A stretch of 64,000 nucleotides of DNA from positions 287,618,001-287,682,000 of the forward strand of contig OZ024740.1 in NCBI GenBank assembly GCA_964016885.1, written 5' to 3'. This document shows, piece by piece, positions 6,204 to 62,863 of this stretch. This DNA comes from Eledone cirrhosa. Taxonomy: Eukaryota. A program made the translations under genes and the position numbers. The stretch's first letter is position 1. Every line of letters begins with the position of its first letter. Below the pieces are notes generated by a model. The model saw only the letters and a list, made by a program, of their open reading frames with translations, ran no database searches and was not told the origin of the DNA.

Positions 6204-6265
6204 CAAATAACGAAACGAAATTAAATTTTGTTTCGTTTGTAACTCACTTTTGTATGACTGACGCT

Positions 6266-6831
6266 TAAACAATTAAGTTAAGAATGTACATCCACATATG
6301 TATACTGAAATACTAGTATGCATATGAATACACACACGTGTACATATGTAGATGTACCGAGTTTTTCACTGGTCACTTTACTGTGAGTGTCCAGCTATTC
6401 TGTATGTAAACACACAGACGTTTCGTTATTTGTTTTTATCGTCTCCGTTGAACCGGTACGTACTCACGCTCTATGCAAATTAGTCTGCCCACTACTAATT
6501 TTCATAGAAAAAGCATATAACGATATGTGCTTTTACGATTCTCTAGAAAGGCCGGAAGATGGGTAAATATTGCTGATGAGATGTAACAACATCGAAACTA
6601 GTCCAATATTCCTTGTCTGGCTTTCTGGAGAATAGAGGAAAGGTGTTTCCTCAAAAACCAGTATGACTCTAAAAACCGGTTTGTCTGTGTGTTTACATAC
6701 AGAATAGCTGGACACTCACAGTAAAGTGACCAGTGAAAAACTCGGTACATCTACATATGTACACGTGTGTGTATTCATATGCATACTAGTATTTCAGTAT
6801 ACATATGTGGATGTACATTCTTAACTTAATT

Positions 6832-6836
<5 letters not shown>
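6266..6836. repeat. 154-bp inverted repeat with 263-bp spacer (Penelope-like inverted pLTR remnant)
   Basis: 6266-6419 is the reverse complement of 6683-6836; flanked by (TA)n; spacer holds a hammerhead. Confidence 0.85.
6566..6610 (+). ncRNA. minimal type I hammerhead ribozyme
   Basis: Stem I AATATTG/CAATATT; CTGATGA; stem II GATGT-AACA-ACATC; GAAA; short palindromic stem III ACTAGT; GUC cleavage site at C6603. Confidence 0.85.
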
Positions 6837-6902
<66 letters not shown>

Positions 6903-39016: not shown

Positions 39017-39478
39017 CTAGCAGAAAAACCACCCTTTGGGTGGTTTTCTGCTAGCATGTGTAGTGTGCATATTGATATATGCAAATATATATATGCATGT
39101 AGATATGATACATCAAATGAAATCATAATTGACAATATGCACAGAAATTGAAGAGAGACTGTGTTACACTCTCTTCCGTAATCAGTAAAGTAATCCATGA
39201 TACATTAAAAAAGATGATATTATATATAAACTGCATATATATTAAACTAAAATGTTATGAAAACGAAAAAGGAGAAAATTAGCGACAGAAATATAAACCA
39301 TATATAACGATGCAAATATACGAACGTTTATATAAGTGATGTGATAAGTGTTATGTTATAACGGACACTAACCGGAAATGTTGAAATTTGAATATTTTAA
39401 AGAAGTGAATCGTAAAATAAGCAATACTTTATATATAAGAACATTTATGTTTATTCAAGAGCTACAAAATTTAGTAGA
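39017..39478 (-). mobile_element. non-autonomous Helitron, relative of 62314-62863
   Basis: Terminal palindrome CTAGCAGAAAAACCACCCTTTGGGTGGTTTTCTGCTAG; 39240-39340 matches the reverse complement of about 62557-62665; putative A|TCTACT start at 39478. Confidence 0.7.
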
Positions 39479-46185: not shown

Positions 46186-48496
46186 AAAAAGATATAAGCA
46201 TGTTCTACAACGCGAGGACCAAAAACGTGAGGTGTTCAGGATTGCTAGGCAATGCGTCAAGGAAAACCGTGATATTGTCGGGGAGAAGTGTGTACTAAAC
46301 GACGATGGCGTCCTTGCCATCACCGACGCTGATAAGAAGGTAGCATGGAACTGTCACTATGAAAGGCTACTAAATGAGGAGAATAAATGGGAGAAAGACA
46401 GTCTCCCCCATATCGACCCAATAGAGGGACCAGCAGTGTTAGTCGAGGGGAGTATAATAAGTAAGGCAATCAAGGATATGAAGACGGGTAAGGCGGCTGG
46501 GCCTTCGGAAATAGTTGCTGAGATGCTGAAGGCATCTGGCACGGTGGGACACACCATGGTCACCCACATAGTTAACCAAGTCGTACAGAATGGGGTTGTT
46601 CCGAAGGACTGGCATAGCAGCATCATCGTTAACTGTTATAAGGGTAAAGGAGACGCCCTAGATAGGAGTAACTATAGAGGCATTAAATTAATCGACCAGG
46701 TCATGAAGGTCACGGAAAAAGTAATAGCGCAACTAATCAGAGAGAGAATTGACCTAGATGAAATGCAGTTCGGGTTTGTGTCAGGCAAAAGTACCACAGA
46801 CGCTCTTTTCATAGTACGACAACTACAGGAGAAGTACCTAGCTAAAGGTAAACCCCTCTACTTAGCTTTTGTCGACTTGGAGAAAGCCTTCGACAGAGTC
46901 CCCCGCTCCATTATCTGGTGGGCTCTTAGAAAACTAGGCGTTGACGAATGGGTTGTGAGGGCTATACAAGCCATGTATAAAGAAACAGTCAGCAAGGTTA
47001 GAATTAACAACGAATATAGTGAAGAGTTTAGCGTAAAAGTTGGCGTCCATCAGGGCTCTGTTCTCAGCCCCCTACTATTTATTATTGCCCTTCAGGCTAT
47101 AACAGAGGAGTTCAAGACAGGCTGCCCATGGGAACTCCTATACGCAGACGACCTGACACTCATAGCGGAATCAATAGCCGAGCTAGAGAAGAAATTCCAA
47201 ACATGGAAGCACGGCCTAGAGTCAAAAGGACTTAAAATTAACCTGGCTAAGACCAAAGTACTAGTTTGTAGGAAAGAAAACAAGGTGGCGGTCCCTTCTG
47301 GGAAATGGTCGTGCTCGGTGTGTAGGAATGGCGTAGGTAGAAACTCCATTTTATGTCCTAAATGCAAAGTATGGGTGCATAAAAGATGTAGTGGGATCAC
47401 AGGTAAGCTAACTAAGAACATAGATTTTACATGTGGCCGGTGTTCTGGTGCAATAAGTAGCAGCAAGTGCCCACAAAATACTAGCTCTTTCAATTGCGCA
47501 GAGGGTTCTATAGAAATAGTGGACAGCTTCCGTTATCTGGGCGATAAAATCAGCAGTGGGGGAGGGTGCTCTGAAAGTACTGTAGCTAGAGTCAGAACTG
47601 GTTGGAAAAAGTTCAGAGAGCTTATACCACTATTAGCTGCTAAAGGGTTCTCCCTAAAAATGAAAGGCAGGTTGTACGATGCCTGCATACGAACAGCAAT
47701 GCTGCATGGCAGTGAGACCTGGGCATTGTGTGCAGAGGATATACGCAGACTAGAGAGGAACGAAGCTTGCATGCTCCGCTGGATGTGTAACAGTAATATA
47801 CGTGAACGGCAAAGCATAAACGAACTAAGGAAAAAATTAGAGATAAGAGGGATCAGATGTTGTTTACTCGAGAGAAGGTTACGTTGGTATGGACACGTGA
47901 TGCGCATGAAAGTCGATAGCTGTATAACAAAGTGCAGGGCAATAAAGATAGACGGTAGTCACGGAATAGGCAGACCTAGAAAAACCTGGGACGAGCTGAT
48001 AAACTCCGACATCACACACTTACACCTCTCCAAGACAATGTCACTGGACCGAGACCTTTGGCGGTACTCAGTAACAGAGAAGACCCGCCTTACCTAAATA
48101 TATAGTAAAACCTACTCCAGCCAGTAGGCATCTCTAACAAAATACACCCCGTCCCACCACCACCACCCCCACCCCATCCACACCACCCCGTTCTATGTAA
48201 AGTTATGTTGGTGCCGCGCCATCGAGGCCGAAACAAATGAGATCGTGTAGGTGTCACGACAAAAAAACACATAGTCCACGCTGTAATGTGGCCGTGTAGG
48301 CAACACGGTAAAAACCTCCCAGACCCACACTGTAAATGTGGTTGGTGTTAGGAAGGGCATCCAACTGTAGAAAACCTGCCAGACAGTCCTATGCGAGCAA
48401 GACAATCACTCTTGCCTCAAGTGGGACTACCCCCGTCCAAACCCATGCAAGCGTGGAACACGGACGTTAAACGTTGATGATGATGATGATGATGAT
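46186..48496 (+). mobile_element. RTE (PHD-type) LINE, 5'-truncated, uninterrupted reading frame
   Basis: Continuous ORF, 3' UTR repeats, conserved tail, (GAT)n; flanked by TA-rich microsatellite. Confidence 0.95.
46232..48097 (+). CDS. LINE reverse transcriptase with PHD-like C4HC3 insertion; APE domain lost by truncation
   Basis: NYRGIKL, QFGF, FVDLEKAFD, GVHQGSVLSP, YADD, FRYLG; CSVC..CPKC..HKRC..CGRC. Confidence 0.92.
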   Translation: MFRIARQCVKENRDIVGEKCVLNDDGVLAITDADKKVAWNCHYERLLNEENKWEKDSLPHIDPIEGPAVLVEGSIISKAIKDMKTGKAAGPSEIVAEMLKASGTVGHTMVTHIVNQVVQNGVVPKDWHSSIIVNCYKGKGDALDRSNYRGIKLIDQVMKVTEKVIAQLIRERIDLDEMQFGFVSGKSTTDALFIVRQLQEKYLAKGKPLYLAFVDLEKAFDRVPRSIIWWALRKLGVDEWVVRAIQAMYKETVSKVRINNEYSEEFSVKVGVHQGSVLSPLLFIIALQAITEEFKTGCPWELLYADDLTLIAESIAELEKKFQTWKHGLESKGLKINLAKTKVLVCRKENKVAVPSGKWSCSVCRNGVGRNSILCPKCKVWVHKRCSGITGKLTKNIDFTCGRCSGAISSSKCPQNTSSFNCAEGSIEIVDSFRYLGDKISSGGGCSESTVARVRTGWKKFRELIPLLAAKGFSLKMKGRLYDACIRTAMLHGSETWALCAEDIRRLERNEACMLRWMCNSNIRERQSINELRKKLEIRGIRCCLLERRLRWYGHVMRMKVDSCITKCRAIKIDGSHGIGRPRKTWDELINSDITHLHLSKTMSLDRDLWRYSVTEKTRLT

Positions 48497-54573: not shown

Positions 54574-55578
54574 TGTTTCTAGTATCTGTTGAAAGAAAAA
54601 CGTTTAAAGACACATGGCCTAGGTGCTAGGTACATGTTTTACATCATGTGTTCCTGTCTTGTTTCTGTGGTTTTTTAGTAGTTAATTTTCGAAAAACATT
54701 TGTTAGGGGGTTTATTTGTTACCCTAGTGTGGGTGTGTTATCTGAAATCATAATTGGGATGTGTGGTATGACCATTTTTAGTAGTTTTAATGATGCAAAT
54801 AATTTTGTATAGTATTTTAATGACAGTTTTCTAGTTCATCTAACCAGCAATTTCTCTGTCTGTCTGTCCGACAGTGGAAACACGTGCGTAGAGAGAGAGT
54901 GAGAGTGAAAGAAAGAGACAGACTACGAGAGGGGGATAGCGGGAGGGAGAGAGGGAGAGAGAGAGAGTGAATAGACGCTAAAACACGTGCTATAGAAACA
55001 TTACCTTCCCCTCTCCACTGACTTTGGTCACTGAGGCCGAGGGAATCGCTGGTTGCACAAGCCAGAAGTAACCAGTTCGAGGCGGTTCTTACTTGACACC
55101 ATGCGAAAAAGGTTGCCATTGAATTTGTGGTTTGAAGAAGGTTGCCATTGAATTTGTGGTTGTTGCTGCTGATAATAAGGACCATTTGAAGAAGGTTGCT
55201 GCTGATGAGGTAATTTATTAATCAGATTGCAGTTCCATAACCGACGTTTGATTTGTTCAATTTTTTTCTTCAATTTTTTTTGTTGTTTTTTTTAATTTCT
55301 TATTAAAAAAATATAAATAATAAAATAAGGTTGGAAATTTAAATACAATTAAATACGATTTAATTTTCATTTCCAGCAGCCAATGTCCAGTGTTCAATTT
55401 CATGAAAAAATTGGAAATAATTCAAAAAATTGAAGTTTAACTTTTGAACATTTGTTTTGACAATAAAAAAATATTTCCTTATTCACACCTAATGGTATGA
55501 TTAAAATTTCATAGGAATATTTTTTTCTAACCACCAGTTATTTAAATATTATTAAAAATAAATTTTTTTTTTAAAAGA

Positions 55579-57635
55579 ATGGAAGATTTTGTGGATTTTT
55601 TTACCACCTTCCAAGCCTTAAACACTAATTCTCGCGAATTTGTGTTTTGTAATGACCTTCAGGACGCTGCTATTGTTGATTCCAATAGTGCCTGGTATTC
55701 GAATATGTTAGTATACAATTTTTTAAATAAAATTAAGGCGCAATTAGAGCTGCCAAACAAAATTCTTTTCGGCTTCGGCCTATATTATTTTGGGGAATAA
55801 TTCTATTGGCTCTAATGAGTCTCCCTCTGTTGGCGGTATTTGCGACAGTCACCATTTCTTGACTTTCAAGTTTGGTTATGCTTGAGCTGGCAGATTCGGG
55901 TCTTCACTTCAAAAATTTTGACTTTTTTGATCGGATTAAATATTACCTTGATGATGGACACAGGGCTACAGTGAAAAAAATTGGAATTCTGAATGGATTC
56001 AAAACTTTTTCCTTGACCCAAAATTTCGTTTTTAGGTTCAGGGTTCTAAATGTGCAGCAGCAGACTAATGGAACTGATTGTGGTCTTTTTGCAATTTTAT
56101 ATTCTTTGATATGGGTTCTAAATTCTAATCCCACAAATTTTGAGTTTTCCACTCAGAATCAAATTAATCTGCTCAGAAAAATTTTCAGGGATTGCTATAA
56201 TATCAATAAAATTTTGGAGTGTAATTTTTTAAATCGCAGGGAAGTTGTGAATCCCATTTTATATGAGAATGTTTTTGTTTTCCACGCTATTAGAAAAACT
56301 CTTTCTAATTTAAATAAACTAGGTCTGGCTGCACACCTATCTGACCCCTTGATGATAAATTTCCAAGAAAATCATTATGGAAAAACCTCAACCTTTCTGT
56401 CCAACCCGGTTTTAGCTCAAATCCCAACTATAAAAGGCAATAAAAAGCCAATTATAATTGAGGAAGATCAAAAAAGTCCAAAAATAACCAAAACTGGAAA
56501 CGAATTGCCTGGAATCACTGCAGACGTATTGCCAGCTGCGGTAGTTTCGCCTCCAGCTGATAAAACTTTGCCGCCTGCAAAACCGACAGAAGATTCCAAA
56601 CGCAAGCCCAAATATTTTTTGGATCCAGTTTTGGTTGCTGAGTATATGGCTCAGCATAAGTGCACCGAAGCCTCTGCGAAAACAGCTTTACGCAGAAAAG
56701 CTCAAAAGGCCTCTGAAACCGAGTCGCAAAGAAATAAGCGACTTGAAAAGCAGCGAAAAGATAGGCAGCGTTCTAGGGGTCAGGAGTCTAAGGACTCAAA
56801 AGGCATAAGGAAGGAAAAAGACCATGAGCATAAAGATGCTACTCGACAATCTGAGACTACCGAAGAACGGGAAATCAGATTGAACAAGGACAAAGTTGGG
56901 CACTCTGAGGCCTATTACAATAGGACCTTCAAAAAGGACCCAAAATACTTCCGTATTGCTTTTAAGCCTATAGATGAGGTGGATTTCGACTCAGAGATAA
57001 TCCACCTCAAATATAAGGACAATCCGTGTGAGCATTGCGGGGCGTACAAATTGCCCTTAGAGCCACCTGGATTGTGTTGCATGAATGGCAAGGTTAAGCT
57101 CCCTGAATTTGAACACCCAGGGGAGGAAATCACCAGTTTATATGAGGGTAATGACGAATATGCAAAAATGTTCACTAAATTCTCAAGGTGTCTTAACACA
57201 GGATTTGCCTTCAGTAATATGCACTGTACTGAGCTTCCAATCAGTGAAGTGAAGCCGAGTATGAAAATTCATGGGTTTTCGTATCAAACGATGGTCCCAC
57301 TTGAGCCGCAAGCAGGCCAAAGACCTAGATATGCGCAGGTGCACATCTTTGATAAGGAGACCCAAAAACTCGATAGGGAAAAATTTGAGTTCGAGCCTCG
57401 GTACCGTGCAATTCTGAACTATATCCAGGCTAAGTTCAATGATTTCATCCCGGATGAGAATATTCTATCAAGAACTTTCAAAACGGGATACAAAATGCTC
57501 AAACAGATGCCCGAATATAGGCTGGTGTTAGGGGATTGTCTGCCTGCCAATAAAACTCATCTCCTCCCTACGGTGTCTGAAATAGCGGGGTCTACCAAGA
57601 GAAGGATATTAAGGAACTTGGGAGGGTCATTTTAG
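55579..57635 (+). pseudogene. RepHel N-terminal region: Ulp1/C48-like protease, charged (STPR-like) repeats, zinc finger
   Basis: AWYSNMLVYNFL, DSHHFLTF (shifted frame), ELADS, QQQTNGTDCGLFAI; ETTEEREIRL; CEHCGAYKLPLEPPGLCCMNGKVKLP. Confidence 0.8.
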
Positions 57636-59423
57636 TGAGAAAATGGGCAGGCAAAGAAGGATACGTCCGTGTTGACTTCCTAAGCCCGTTTTATGAACCT
57701 CTGGGCTATCCCCTTATTTTCAATTATGGCCAGAATGGGTGGAGCCGTTGGAACCCGAAAACAGAAACTGGCCATAAAGAAACTTTGTTGCAGTATATCA
57801 AGTACTATTTAATGGTCCGGGACAATTTTTTCAACCCTCTTATATTGAGCGGTAATCTGTTGCACCATTATACGATAGACATGAAAATGCGTCTGGATTA
57901 CATTCATTTCCAGTTTCAGGTTAAGCATCAGCAAAGGATTAAGGGGTCATATAGGTTTGAATCGGTCGACACTCTAACGGATTGTGAAAATCCTGCAGAG
58001 GTTGGAGTCGGCGGCGTCCTGTCCGAATCGACTCCTGGGACTCCAAAGTGGTACAAAAAATTGTACCGAGATTCAATGGCACTGGTCAGAGAATTTGGAT
58101 GTCCAGACCTTTTTGTGACCATGACCTCCAATCCTAAACTGCCTGAAATAGAAGAAATAAAGATGAAACTGCAAAATTTAGGCCTGATCTAATTTGCAGG
58201 AGTTTCATGGAACGTGTGAGGCTTCTTTTTGATGTGAAAATCAAAAAGAAAGGTATTTTTGGTAAATGTGTTGCATACACTTACAAAATAGAATTTCAGA
58301 AAAGAGGCCTCCCACATGTCCACGCTTTAATTTGGTTGGCCGAGGCCGATAAGATTTCATCCACAGAGGATGTTGGTAGTCTCATTAGCGCTGAAATCCC
58401 GACAGGGGATACCAAAAATCAGAAGCTGGGCTATAATTTTGTGATTACAAAAATGATCCACGGTCCTTGCGGTGTTTTTAATCCCCGGTGTCCTTGTATG
58501 AAGCAGTGTAAAAAGTCCAAAAACGGAACTTCTTGCTCTAAGATGTTTCCGAAGGACTATAACAATGCGACCAGGTTTAACGAGGCTAACTACCCTAAAT
58601 ACAGGCGTAGAACGCCCGATAATAATGGTGGACAGGGGGAAATTCATCAGAAAGGTAAAAAAAGTGTGTGGTAACAAGCAGGGATGTTGTTCCAATCTTT
58701 TTCTTGGGATCATATTTCAGTGCCACATTAACGTAGAGGTGGTGGCCGGGGTCACTATATTTCAATATATTTTTAAATATATACTAAAAGGTGCCGACCA
58801 CATCAACTATGAGGTGGAAAAGGTCTGTGATGACCAGGGGAACCCTGTGGATGACCAGGAAAAGGACGAGGTTAGGATATACCTTAACGGTAGGTATATG
58901 TCCAACGTTTGAGGCGATGTGGTGGTTACTCTGCCTGGCCCAATACGGAATGTACCCCTCGATCCTAAAGCTGGATATCCACCTCGAAGGGAAACAAAAA
59001 GTTTTTTATGACCCCAAGTTAGCTAAACCCGATTAAAAAACCCTGGAAAAACTATCCAAGACGAAATTGACCGAATTTTTCACTCTCAATCGAGAAGATG
59101 AAAAGGCCAACAATTTTTTGTATTTGGATATTCCGAAATTTTACGTCTGGATGGTCCAAGAAAGGTTTTGGAAGCGTCGAGTACAGGGCGAGAATGATCC
59201 TGAGTTCGGCATGCTCAGGGGTGATCAGATATCCTGCATGCCGAACATTTTACCAAACTCAGGTGGTAATCAGGAAACCTTTGCCCTCTACCTTTTGCTT
59301 TTAAAAACAAAAGGTCCCAAGTGCTACACCGATCTCAGAACAGTAGGCGATCAAGTTTTTCCGACCTTCAAAGAGGCAGCAGTATTCCGCAAGCTCATGG
59401 AGGCGACAACAAAATCAGTTTAG
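57635..59423 (+). pseudogene. RepHel HUH/Y2 Rep domain, frameshifted
   Basis: Motif 1 PDLFVTMTSNP, motif 2 IEFQKRGLPHVHALIW, motif 3 YIFKYILKG, spread over several ORFs. Confidence 0.92.
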
Positions 59424-61176
59424 TATTGCATGAGGCTCAGATTTCGATGAGCCCTCGCATGATGCGGAGGATGTTCGCAATGCTTATCCACCTTTGGAAG
59501 CCGACTGACGCCCTGTCACTGTGGAATGACCACAAAGACTGGATGTCACATGATTTAGCCCGAGCAGACCCCACTGCTGATGTGGATATCATACACAATA
59601 GGGCATTGCACCAGGTTTACGCTTACCTGCTAAATTACGGCACCAAAATGGATACCTGCAACCTTCCCCAGCCAATCAAGGAGGTTAGAGTGCCCGAGAA
59701 TCAGAAAATTGGGATTTCTTATGAGAGCACAGCAAGCTCGGAGTCCATTTTGGAGGTTGAAAACTCCCTGAATGCTGATCAGCGGGCGCTCTATGACTCC
59801 GTATTGGAATCGGTGAGGCAGAATTCGGGAAAAAACTTTTTCGTGGACACACCCGGGGGAACTGGCAAGACTTATCTTAGCAATGCGATAGTAGAAAAAG
59901 TTGCCAGTGAAGGTTACAAGGTGATTGCTTGCGCCTCATCTGGCATTGCGGCACTATTTCTTAAAGGCGGCACAACCTTGCACTCAAGGATGAAGTTGCC
60001 TTTGAATCTGCAAGATAAAACAGCGATTAGTATCCAGAAGGGATCAAAACTTGCAAAGGAACTTGCGAAACTTGACCTGATTATTTGGGACGAGGCCCCC
60101 ATGTTCAGTAGGGACCTGATGGAGTTTTGGGATAAAACTCTAAGATTCGTCCGCGGAGGGGTGAAACCATCCAAGAAAACCTTCAGAGGTGTCACCATGC
60201 TACTCTCTGGCGATTGGCGACAAGTTCTCCCAGTTGTTCCTAATGGAGAGCGACCACAAATTGTCGCTTCTACTTTAAAAAATCACCCATCGTGGGATAC
60301 TTTCAATATTTTCAAGTTGAATACAAACATGAGGGTCAACGGGGTCGATCAGGCTTCCATTGATTTTAAAGCCCTCCTTTTGAGGATTGGGGATGGTGTC
60401 GCCAATCGCAGACAGGACAATCGGAGGACCCACGACTTTGAAGTTCCCCCTCAGTTTCTCATGACAGGTGACATGCCTGACCCATTGATAGATAGGATAT
60501 ACCCTGTGTCAACTAGGTTGGGTGAGAATGATTATGTGAATTGGGTGACCGATCGCGCAATCATTACTCCCACGAATAAGGATGTAGACGAGATCAATCA
60601 AAAAGTCCTTGACAGATTGCCCGGTAGGGAAATAGTAATCCCTTCGTTTGATCGTAACCACGAGCAAACAGACCGAAAGCATCATGTTTCAGTGGACACT
60701 TTGAACTCGATAGTTCTTCCTGGAATGCCGGATCACCTTTTGAAACTGAAGATAGGTGCTCCGGTTATTCTGCTCAGAAACATATGTCCCGCCGAGAGAC
60801 ATTGCAACGGTACTCAATACGTTGTAAAAAATATCCACCCACGAATACTCGAACTTGAAGTAGCGGTGGGCCCTCGGAAGGGACAATTGTTTCATTTGCC
60901 TAGATTGAGCTTCATAGCGAAGAAGGGAGGGTTCCATTCGATTTTTACCGGAAACAGTTTCCTGTTAAATTATCGTTTGCGATGACCTCCAACAAATCAC
61001 AAGGACAGACCATTACCCATGTTGGTATAAGCTGCCTGAATGATTTCTTTTCGCATGGCCAGTTCTATGTTGCAATAAGCAGGGTAACAAATCCGGCGAA
61101 TGTTACGATTTTAGTTCCCGAAAACCAAAATGGTGTAGTAAAAAATGTTGTCTTTCCTGAGGTTTTTAGGAACTAA
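59321..61176 (+). pseudogene. RepHel Pif1-like SF1 helicase domain, frameshifted near C-terminus
   Basis: PGGTGKT, IIWDEAPM, GDWRQVLP, ILLRN..CNGT, MTSNKSQGQT, HGQFYVAISRV. Confidence 0.93.
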
Positions 61177-61202
61177 AGTGTAACAATGTATTCATCGTTT
61201 AT

Positions 61203-61315
61203 GCCAAACTGATGAGTCCTAAAAAGGACGAAATACCTTATTTTTTTTAAAAACGAAATCGAGGAGAAACAACCTTTCTAATTCTGATTTTGTTAAAAAT
61301 TGAGGTATCTTTGGC
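61203..61315 (+). ncRNA. type I hammerhead ribozyme in Helitron 3' region
   Basis: Stem I GCCAAA/TTTGGC; CTGATGA; stem II GTCCT-AAAA-AGGAC; GAAA; stem III ATACCT/AGGTAT with long extension; AUC cleavage site at C61309. Confidence 0.85.
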
Positions 61316-61793
61316 TAACAAAATTAAATTCTAATTAAAATATTAATAGGAAAAAAATTCAAACAAAGTGCTGATTGACTCGCTGGGTAATTGACTCTGT
61401 TGATAATTGGTTCTCTTGATAATTCTCTTGATGCTTCTCATCTCTTGGTAATTTTAAAATATTAATTAAAAATAATAATTATTCAACAAATTATTATATA
61501 AGCTTTATAAAAAAAATAGATATACAAAACTGAGATACAAAAATAGATATACATATCTGTCTGTCTGTCTGTCTGTGTCTGTGATGCAGCAACTTTTGAT
61601 CCGCAAAGCCGATTTTCAATTTTTTTTTTGTAATCAACCATAAATTTATCAGGGCAGATCGGCACAATATTGCAAATAATTGACAACCGCTTTTTTTAGG
61701 TGAAAAATCGATAAAACTGACAATGGGTCAAACTTTGCACAGGTTTCTTCCAATCTCTCACTACAGGCTGTGTGTGTGTCGACATCTGTTTTT

Positions 61794-61885
61794 AATGATG
61801 GTTCATATATCCTATTTCTTTGAAATGATGGTTCATATATCATATTTCTTTGAAATGATGGTTCATATATCATATTTCTTTGAAA
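61794..61885. repeat. 30-bp tandem repeat x3
   Basis: AATGATGGTTCATATATCMTATTTCTTTGA. Confidence 0.9.
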
Positions 61886-62313
61886 TTTTTTTACAGAGCT
61901 TCTTCTAGCATAAGACCTGTAATTGAGCGGCACAGGTTTTCAAAAATCGATATTTCGGCCTTTGGAGATATATCAAAATTTGGATTATTTTTGCCAATGT
62001 TCGTGATTAAGTATGACAAGAGTTATCTTTCTCCGCGACCAGCGTCTCCGATTTCGAACACTGGTTTACACACACATACATTAAAAGTTATTTAAGTTTA
62101 TGCCATCACGCGCTTTTAATGTTGTAAAAAAAATGTTTACCGGATAACGGATAACACCGAGCTCACATATTAATTATTTCGCTGGAATAGTGCCTAAAGT
62201 TTTCATGTTTACATAAAGTACGTATTTCTTCTATGTATTCAAATTTACTTTGTTTACTTTAATGAGCTACATCGAAAGCTACTTCACCCGTCCAAAGGAC
62301 GGGTACTAGATAG

Positions 62314-62863
62314 TCTACTTATAATATATAATGGGCATTTCTCTGTTTGTTTGTCTGTCTGTCCGTCTGTAAAAAATGCCAAGGAAACAAATAGACACGG
62401 TTTCAAATCTCTATGCTTTTCAAATTCATTACATTAATCTTTATTTATACGTTTCGCTTTACGAGTGTTTCGGCTTACGAGTGTTTCGGCTTACGAGTGT
62501 TTCGACTTACGAGTGTTTCGGCTTACGAGTGTTTCGACTTACGAGTGTTTCGGCTTATCATTATATATAAACGTTTCTATTTCCATCGTTATATCATAAC
62601 GTTTATGTATCATAACGTTTATATTTCCGTCACTAATCTTTTTTTCTCCTTTTTCGTTTTAACATATATTTATTTCCAAGATTTCACCATATAGATAACA
62701 TATATATTTATACATAACATATATATTTATACATGCATAAAAGACACACCGAGAGACGGTGAACATGTGGTGCCGAAAACATTTCTCATTCAAATCTCAA
62801 CAATATCAGTATATACACTAGATTTGCTAGCAGAAAACCGCCCACCGGGTGGTTTTCTGCTAG
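62314..62863 (+). mobile_element. non-autonomous Helitron unit 2
   Basis: Starts TCTACTTATA, (TCTG)n, ends in the palindrome CTAGCAGAAAACC...GGTTTTCTGCTAG; dispersed relative at 39017. Confidence 0.78.
62459..62557. repeat. 16-bp minisatellite x6
   Basis: TTACGAGTGTTTCGRC units. Confidence 0.93.

Follow-up and report, generated by a model that had tools for sequence, protein, structure and literature searches.

A type I hammerhead ribozyme motif behind the transposase gene of a Helitron family in Eledone cirrhosa

A complete type I hammerhead ribozyme motif (61203-61315, + strand; sequence and pair check) is located 26 nt downstream of the stop codon of the transposase gene (RepHel) in a Helitron on contig OZ024740.1 of Eledone cirrhosa. 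The whole stretch of DNA analyzed, 64,000 nucleotides in length (contig positions 287618001-287682000), is from now on referred to as the window. Judging from the sequences of its copies, the ribozyme was in the active master of this Helitron family, and among everything examined it is confined to this one family. A known ribozyme is found here in a known kind of transposon, and the combination was found nowhere described. The original prediction had likewise held that no association between hammerheads and rolling-circle transposons was on record. In the available text of the literature searched, no published link between Helitrons and hammerheads was found, while an annotation in Repbase/Dfam or in a subscription journal is possible; the word "helitron" is also absent from the available part of a 2026 ribozyme survey preprint.

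The hammerhead motif and its host element

All positions of the conserved hammerhead core are present (C3-U4-G5-A6-N7-G8-A9, G12-A13-A14, A15.1-U16.1 and H17), together with three helices, an open-ended helix I and the G10.1-C11.1 pair. The minimum free energy (MFE) fold of 61195-61325 corresponds exactly to the hammerhead (-32.9 kcal/mol, z=-4.75) and none of 200 shuffled sequences was as stable. A type I descriptor run across the 64-kb window returned a single match, namely this motif (stems 6/5/8). Stems of at least 6/4/6 did not occur in any of 200 Markov-1 random 64-kb windows and a loose match was found in six of them. The proposal of a canonical, complete type I hammerhead on the sense strand, 26 nt past the TAA ending at 61176, is thus borne out by sequence, pair check and MFE fold, and so is its 6-bp helix I; helix II comprises 4-5 bp. 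With 30.2 bits the motif stays below the Rfam gathering score of 52 for HH9, and the alignment is partly incorrect, because the long helix III lies outside the HH9 model.

Table 1 Features of the hammerhead and of its host Helitron in the window.
Feature	Position	Strand	Basis or remark
Helix I	GCCAAA 61203-61208 / UUUGGC 61310-61315	+	6 Watson-Crick pairs
Core CUGAUGA	61209-61215	+	Sequence, pair check
Helix II	61216-61229	+	GUCC/GGAC, 6-nt loop UAAAAA 61220-61225; alternatively 5 bp around AAAA
GAAA	61230-61233	+	GAA 61230-61232; A61233 opens helix III
Helix III	61233-61308	+	First pair A61233-U61308; ~30 bp with bulges
Triplet AUC, predicted cut	after C61309	+	Pair check
Loop 1, 5' side UUAU	61199-61202	+	HH9 consensus UUAC at the equivalent place (by-eye comparison)
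Competing hairpin, spacer side	61190-61199	+	Predicted pairing with 61206-61217, hiding the catalytic core; -6.7 kcal/mol
HLE1-type Helitron copy, ~8 kb, composite ends	54838-62863	+	Sister alignments from 54838 to the second CTAG end
RepHel gene	55579-61176	+	Open for 1,877 codons in the family; disrupted in the window copy
Ulp1/Peptidase_C48-like catalytic stretch, RepHel N-terminus (weak)	56034-56207	+	Pfam E=0.0036, below the curated cut-off
HUH motif (H-V-H), Rep domain	58315-58323	+	Helitron_like_N matches
PIF1 helicase domain	59768-60418	+	Pfam PF05970, E=2e-63
RepHel stop TAA	61174-61176	+	Common end of sister frames of 449-1458 codons
First two ATTAAA candidate poly(A) signals	61323-61339	+	Located 14 and 25 nt 3' of the cut
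3' segment common with a different resident Helitron family	61874-62330	+	Pieces 61874-62031 and 62142-62330; 82-96% identity
First Helitron 3' terminus	62287-62309	+	7-bp hairpin and CTAG
Second 3' terminus	62827-62863	+	Long palindrome ending CTAG/T; common to non-autonomous derivatives

The motif resembles canonical metazoan type I hammerheads (Schistosoma Sm-alpha, non-LTR retrozymes and amniote HH9; Rfam clan CL00010) in its core, 6-bp helix I and 4-bp helix II with a 6-nt A-rich loop. Its loop 1 is also near the HH9 consensus. As regards a possible tertiary contact between loops 1 and 2, loop 2 UAAAAA and the 5' UUAU can be compared with CAAAAA/UUAC in HH9, but the distal part of helix I is weak at only ~3 bp. 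It differs from them in its ~30-bp helix III, where the canonical motifs have 1-2 bp with a palindromic loop, and in occurring singly within a DNA transposon, whereas theirs are found in 150-400-bp tandem repeats.

Folding of the motif depends on its context. The probability of the hammerhead fold is 0.39 for 61195-61325 and at most 0.05 in four longer stretches, in which helix I is outcompeted by other pairings. The highest stability is seen for helix III, whatever the context (pair probabilities 0.73-1.0). In a co-transcriptional fold series, a hairpin between the spacer and the core is predicted to form first and to persist until helix I can close. The core was paired equally well by 12 of 150 shuffled spacers, placing this hairpin within chance, and it was rejected as a proven switch.

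The host element has the hallmarks of an HLE1 Helitron, specifically, a RepHel protein with an HUH/Y2 Rep and a PIF1 helicase, a 3' hairpin followed by CTRR and a 5' TC in sister copies. The 5' terminal TC(T) of these copies is not clearly kept in the window copy, whose 5' end is degraded. Compared with the column majority of copies, the RepHel gene in the window carries 11 indels. The position of the hammerhead after a RepHel stop stands as originally described, with the qualification that TAA 61176 is where the family frame stops, the frame of this copy being no longer open. The 3' pieces common to another resident Helitron family indicate that element ends were captured. Captured ends, an HUH and PIF1 RepHel and termini with a hairpin and CTAG are all features that the element has in common with the HLE1 Helitrons with added domains described by HELIANO (PMC11417382). 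The E. cirrhosa RepHel differs from these in forming its own clade with metagenome proteins, and the word "ribozyme" is absent from the available main text of that paper. At the RepHel N-terminus, the nearest ESM Atlas clusters are Peptidase_C48 (score 0.94). The original prediction held that the hammerhead and the protease together may define an undescribed Helitron lineage; for the protease this does not hold, since Ulp1/Peptidase_C48 is already listed among the domains stably carried by Helitron-like elements in the available text of PMC11417382 and thus marks no new lineage.

Further features of the element were observed along the way. The 3' end palindrome (62827-62863, also present at 39020-39054) has CTAG on both arms, as opposed to the usual short hairpin set back from CTAG. 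Short tandem arrays occupy parts of the 3' region (61374-61424 and 62451-62557 with 16-nt units, 61794-61886 with 30-nt units). A candidate spliceosomal intron is found in the 5' UTR at 55211-55380, upstream of ATG 55579, with GAG/GTAATT at ~55211 and a pyrimidine tract leading to CCAGCAG at ~55380. A second ribozyme in the 5' UTR was rejected, as none was found there by regex or Rfam.

Family copies and other Helitrons

A DNA search of the 3.0-Gb assembly with 61000-61450 returned 10 places, all belonging to the family. The whole hammerhead is found in nine of them at the same distance from the stop, that is, in every copy keeping the region, while in the tenth an internal deletion took the 5' half of the motif plus half of the ORF. 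Two further coding copies (L205, L206) break off before the helicase end, so no copy was seen that has the RepHel end yet lacks the hammerhead. Sister copies without the motif would have pointed to a secondary insertion into one copy, an explanation that the nine out of nine copies led us to reject. The family is star-like, with copies 1.7-3.2% apart and mostly private changes; one recent duplicate pair differs by 0.45%, leaving eight independent insertions among the nine motif-bearing copies. The core and proximal stems are unmutated in seven of the nine, one copy having a C17 to G change and one a helix II mismatch. In the column majority of six copies, RepHel comprises 1,878 codons with a single stop at codon 1878. 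It follows from the open family ORF and the intact motif in the copies that neither RepHel nor the hammerhead was damaged in the active master.

Changes within RepHel among the six copies (60 synonymous, 204 non-synonymous) are as expected under neutral decay after insertion. Substitution counts across copies gave no sign of selection on the hammerhead, with two of nine copies altered at C17 or helix II; there are 5 changes over 112 columns in the motif, 159 over 1,777 in the ORF and 12 over 185 just downstream, numbers too few to separate. There is also no covariation to test, because the family is star-like and its copies are nearly identical. Each element has one hammerhead and two were never found within any 10-kb copy locus. 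The copies sit in nested, head-to-tail Helitron arrays.

A protein search with the first 246 RepHel residues yielded 150 scored places, most of which cover only residues 1 to 70-100. Well over 100 short derivatives, in which the first 70-100 codons of the protease-bearing ORF lie between Helitron ends, were observed, often in head-to-tail arrays and far outnumbering the coding copies (~12). Eleven short-derivative loci (L207-L217) have the Helitron ends in common and contain nothing that matches the hammerhead region, suggesting that the motif is not needed in cis for DNA transposition.

From other Helitron groups of the same genome, 41 loci were examined, 40 of which reach the helicase end and fall into 10 clusters. 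In none of these 40, representing ~10 groups, does a sense hammerhead lie 700 nt or less from the stop; two sense hammerheads lie further away, at ~+740 and ~+1290, and two are antisense, each in a single cluster member. From 80 metagenome Helitron loci, 65 were scanned after exclusion of weak partial matches (L145-L159). The motif was found in none of the 60 that reach the helicase end, 47 of which have at least 150 nt downstream. The descriptor detected three of three positive controls. A hammerhead near the RepHel stop is present in all nine family copies that keep the region and in none of the 40 genomic and 47 metagenome loci, and it should be noted that all of the latter lie outside the RepHel clade of the family (17 metagenome loci were placed in the tree, none within the clade).

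Within the E. cirrhosa genome, RepHel is an orphan, with 32% identity over a pre-Rep region for the next match. It groups with five ENA metagenome proteins (P0001, P0002, P0119, P0170 and P0207) with a support of 1.00 (FastTree, 470 helicase residues, 50 rows) and a helicase identity of 43-49%; P0269 and P0270 are extra candidates outside the tree. This distinct clade has GDWRQ, GHCNG and FFxHGQFY motifs and was seen only in ENA metagenome contigs and the E. cirrhosa genome. A protein search found no long proteins sharing the N-terminal protease region (weak evidence). RepHel alignments to viral contigs gave no match for A1 and A3 and one weak 31-aa match for A2, and the exact pattern of the Helitron hammerhead is absent from the viral contigs. 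Two loci in GTDB contigs (L250, L251) are 36% and 43% identical to P0207 and have no hammerhead core downstream; these helicase-like matches in two bacterial MAG records are probably eukaryotic contamination. A young, low-copy orphan family would fit a recent horizontal arrival, and the motif could have come in together with the element from a different host. A wider reading holds that a whole clade of horizontally moving Helitrons, made up of this family and the ENA metagenome RepHels, ends its transposase message with a monomer-active hammerhead, possibly gated by the anti-core hairpin abutting the footprint of the terminating ribosome. We consider this unlikely; if true, it would be the first eukaryotic DNA transposon lineage with a self-cleaving RNA setting or limiting its own transposase expression.

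Predicted effect on the transposase message

Hammerhead chemistry requires a 2'-OH and an action on single-stranded DNA was rejected for this reason. In the literature available to us, the hammerheads of eukaryotic mobile elements go together with RNA-based replication, as in Penelope elements, retrozymes and viroid-like circles, where cutting makes the replicating RNA. Helitrons have no RNA intermediate, so a ribozyme kept in the master could only act on the mRNA. We tentatively favor, while giving it somewhat less than an even chance, the reading that the 3'-UTR hammerhead cleaves the nascent transposase transcript as a monomer and dampens transposase output. The master Helitron carried a complete type I hammerhead in the RepHel 3' UTR, and in this scheme the nascent RepHel transcript is predicted to cleave itself 133 nt past the stop codon, with all candidate poly(A) signals lying further downstream. 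The cut would leave part of the RepHel mRNA without a tail and would stop read-through, and both effects together would lower transposase output. AATAAA is absent from the stop to 62870 and all four ATTAAA are located 3' of the cut, so cleavage would separate the coding part from the poly(A) site.

Self-cleavage is suggested by the core, the helix sizes and the loop signature. According to the available text of PMC4209133, most metazoan type I motifs combine a helix I of 6 bp and a helix II of 4 bp with an unstable helix III and act as dimers, while variants with a large helix III from fungal and protist Penelope elements function as monomers. By analogy, the Helitron motif should be monomer-competent like the latter and unlike the minimal, dimer-dependent metazoan retroelement motifs, as canonical helices I and II with HH9-like loops and a long helix III predict that it cuts alone. 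Cutting is expected to be partial, not complete, given that helix I is outcompeted in longer contexts, that the competing hairpin forms first and that the triplet is AUC. This triplet is essentially absent from natural hammerheads and lowered co-transcriptional cleavage according to the available text of a viroid-centered study from 2006 (PMC1636495).

A precedent is provided by the mammalian Clec2 hammerheads (Martick et al. 2008, via the accessible part of PMC2950038), which are likewise located in the 3' UTR of a coding message and contain a large insertion in a loop. A negative effect on expression was shown there, with reporter output lowered by 80% by the Clec2d 3'-UTR hammerhead. The two cases differ in that the Clec2 hammerhead belongs to a host gene, is discontinuous and is conserved across mammals, while the Helitron motif belongs to a transposase gene in one family. 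The hammerhead may benefit the element; against dampening stands the fact that ~10 other Helitron groups spread in the same genome without one. If active and conserved, the motif would cleanly exemplify how a transposon controls its transposase through a catalytic RNA, and the role of isolated genomic hammerheads would become directly testable by means of a point mutant and a transposition assay.

The same cut could have the opposite outcome. Cleavage would then make a working mRNA end that replaces polyadenylation and insulates the gene from variable captured DNA downstream, the 5' product ending in the helix III hairpin with a 2',3'-cyclic phosphate and being protected from exonucleases. The stability of helix III, which would form the extreme 3' terminus of the cleaved mRNA, the lack of AATAAA in the 3' region and the patchwork of captured ends downstream are consistent with this. 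We nevertheless consider it improbable, as Pol II mRNAs without a tail are usually poorly exported and translated, ATTAAA signals do follow shortly after the cut and a U-rich triple-helix element is not evident on fold inspection. The Clec2d precedent also lowers expression (available text of PMC2950038).

Even less probable, and in our view very doubtful, is that the functional product is the 3' fragment, a non-coding RNA with a 5'-OH, or a retrozyme-like circle formed between the hammerheads of tandem copies. The head-to-tail arrangement of the copies would permit the latter, and type I cleavage can enable cap-independent translation of what follows according to the available text of PMC13725137. 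However, each element has a single hammerhead, never two per 10-kb copy locus, the fold of the 136 nt that follow the cut is not more stable than that of shuffles (z=+0.47) and no ORF of at least 100 codons is found between 61176 and 64000.

Resident hammerheads and the origin of the motif

The pattern CTGATGAGTCC-N4-12-GGACGAAA has 3,172 exact matches in the genome and none in the control. Thirty of these were inspected and represent one family of minimal hammerheads, often in inverted pairs, with a 3-bp helix I and a 2-bp helix III. One minimal hammerhead lies beside a Penelope-like reverse transcriptase (RT) frame (L059; recognized by eye, no Pfam match). The center of the Helitron motif is identical to the Penelope-type hammerhead at 23 of 25 nt (92%), and both have GCC before, GGCTAA after and the same helix II. 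This form is the commonest among the first 100 listed of the 3,172 matches. A common descent with the Penelope-type hammerhead is plausible on this basis, yet the similarity is no proof of it because much of the 23/25 match is forced by function. The Helitron motif probably descends from a hammerhead of the Penelope or retrozyme type.

These similarities bear on a close rival of the dampening reading, which we rank just behind it as a possible explanation: the motif may be a passenger. Not long before its burst, in the present or an earlier host, the master would have acquired a piece of a retrozyme or Penelope-like element that included a hammerhead, and the copies would have inherited it without use. 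It would be tolerated because of its poor folding in context, or the element would be moved in trans by resident RepHel proteins. The abundance of hammerheads in the genome, the helix II and flanks of the commonest resident form and the captured ends common with resident Helitrons all speak for this. Against dampening stand the 92% match of the center to the commonest Penelope hammerhead and the demonstrable capture of neighboring DNA by the family at its 3' end. In favor of a passenger, the star phylogeny also reduces the nine out of nine copies to a single event, the co-transcriptional series predicts the competing hairpin all along up to the closing of helix I and no other Helitron examined has a hammerhead near the stop.

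On the other hand, no donor combining the Helitron helix I with its 76-nt helix III came to light. The DNA search returned the 10 family places only, the exact patterns of the Helitron hammerhead matched eight family copies and two Penelope variants, and a second pattern (71 matches, 30 inspected) found helix III of the Helitron motif in family copies only. Among the hammerhead loci compared, BLAST similarity to the Penelope-type motif stops at the central 25-31 nt, and a dimer-type motif with its short helices I and III could become the Helitron form only through paired changes on both strands. The stretch from the stop to the motif showed neither a Penelope flank nor a coding remnant. The original prediction likewise saw no retroelement around the motif, in agreement with the DNA search and the exact patterns, which revealed neither a retroelement flank nor a donor. 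A retrozyme array was rejected: around the hammerhead there are no 150-400-bp tandem repeats each with a type I hammerhead, and every copy locus has one motif. The hammerhead is also part of no repeat common with Penelope copies, as the DNA search yielded family copies only. If a passenger, the motif would still document the spread of an intact ribozyme through a genome by a Helitron.

The hammerheads of Penelope pLTRs and Terminons are similar to the Helitron motif in that they are type I motifs on the sense strand just past the ORF of a mobile element, and Terminons carry Rep-like ORFs and a 3' hammerhead (available text of PMC6431247). In contrast to Penelope-like elements, the Helitron host has no reverse transcriptase and moves through DNA.

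Several minimal Penelope-type motifs had been assumed elsewhere in the window; one other core was found, at 6573. It belongs to a Penelope-type hammerhead at 6566-6610 (Rfam HH9, 37 bits), whose helix I measures 7 bp and whose helix III is the palindromic ACTAGT and which sits in an inverted-repeat arrangement at ~6260-6840; a similar motif is found in L207. Dispersed repeats at 10 loci (L160, L167, L168, L174, L177-L180, L187 and L189) contain a hammerhead core and a longer region after GAAA. This L160/L167-type family, distinct from the main Penelope-type, is possibly a non-autonomous retroelement. The window also contains an RT ORF at 46187-48097, which we take to be RTE-like, with a PHD-finger-like insertion after the RT domain.
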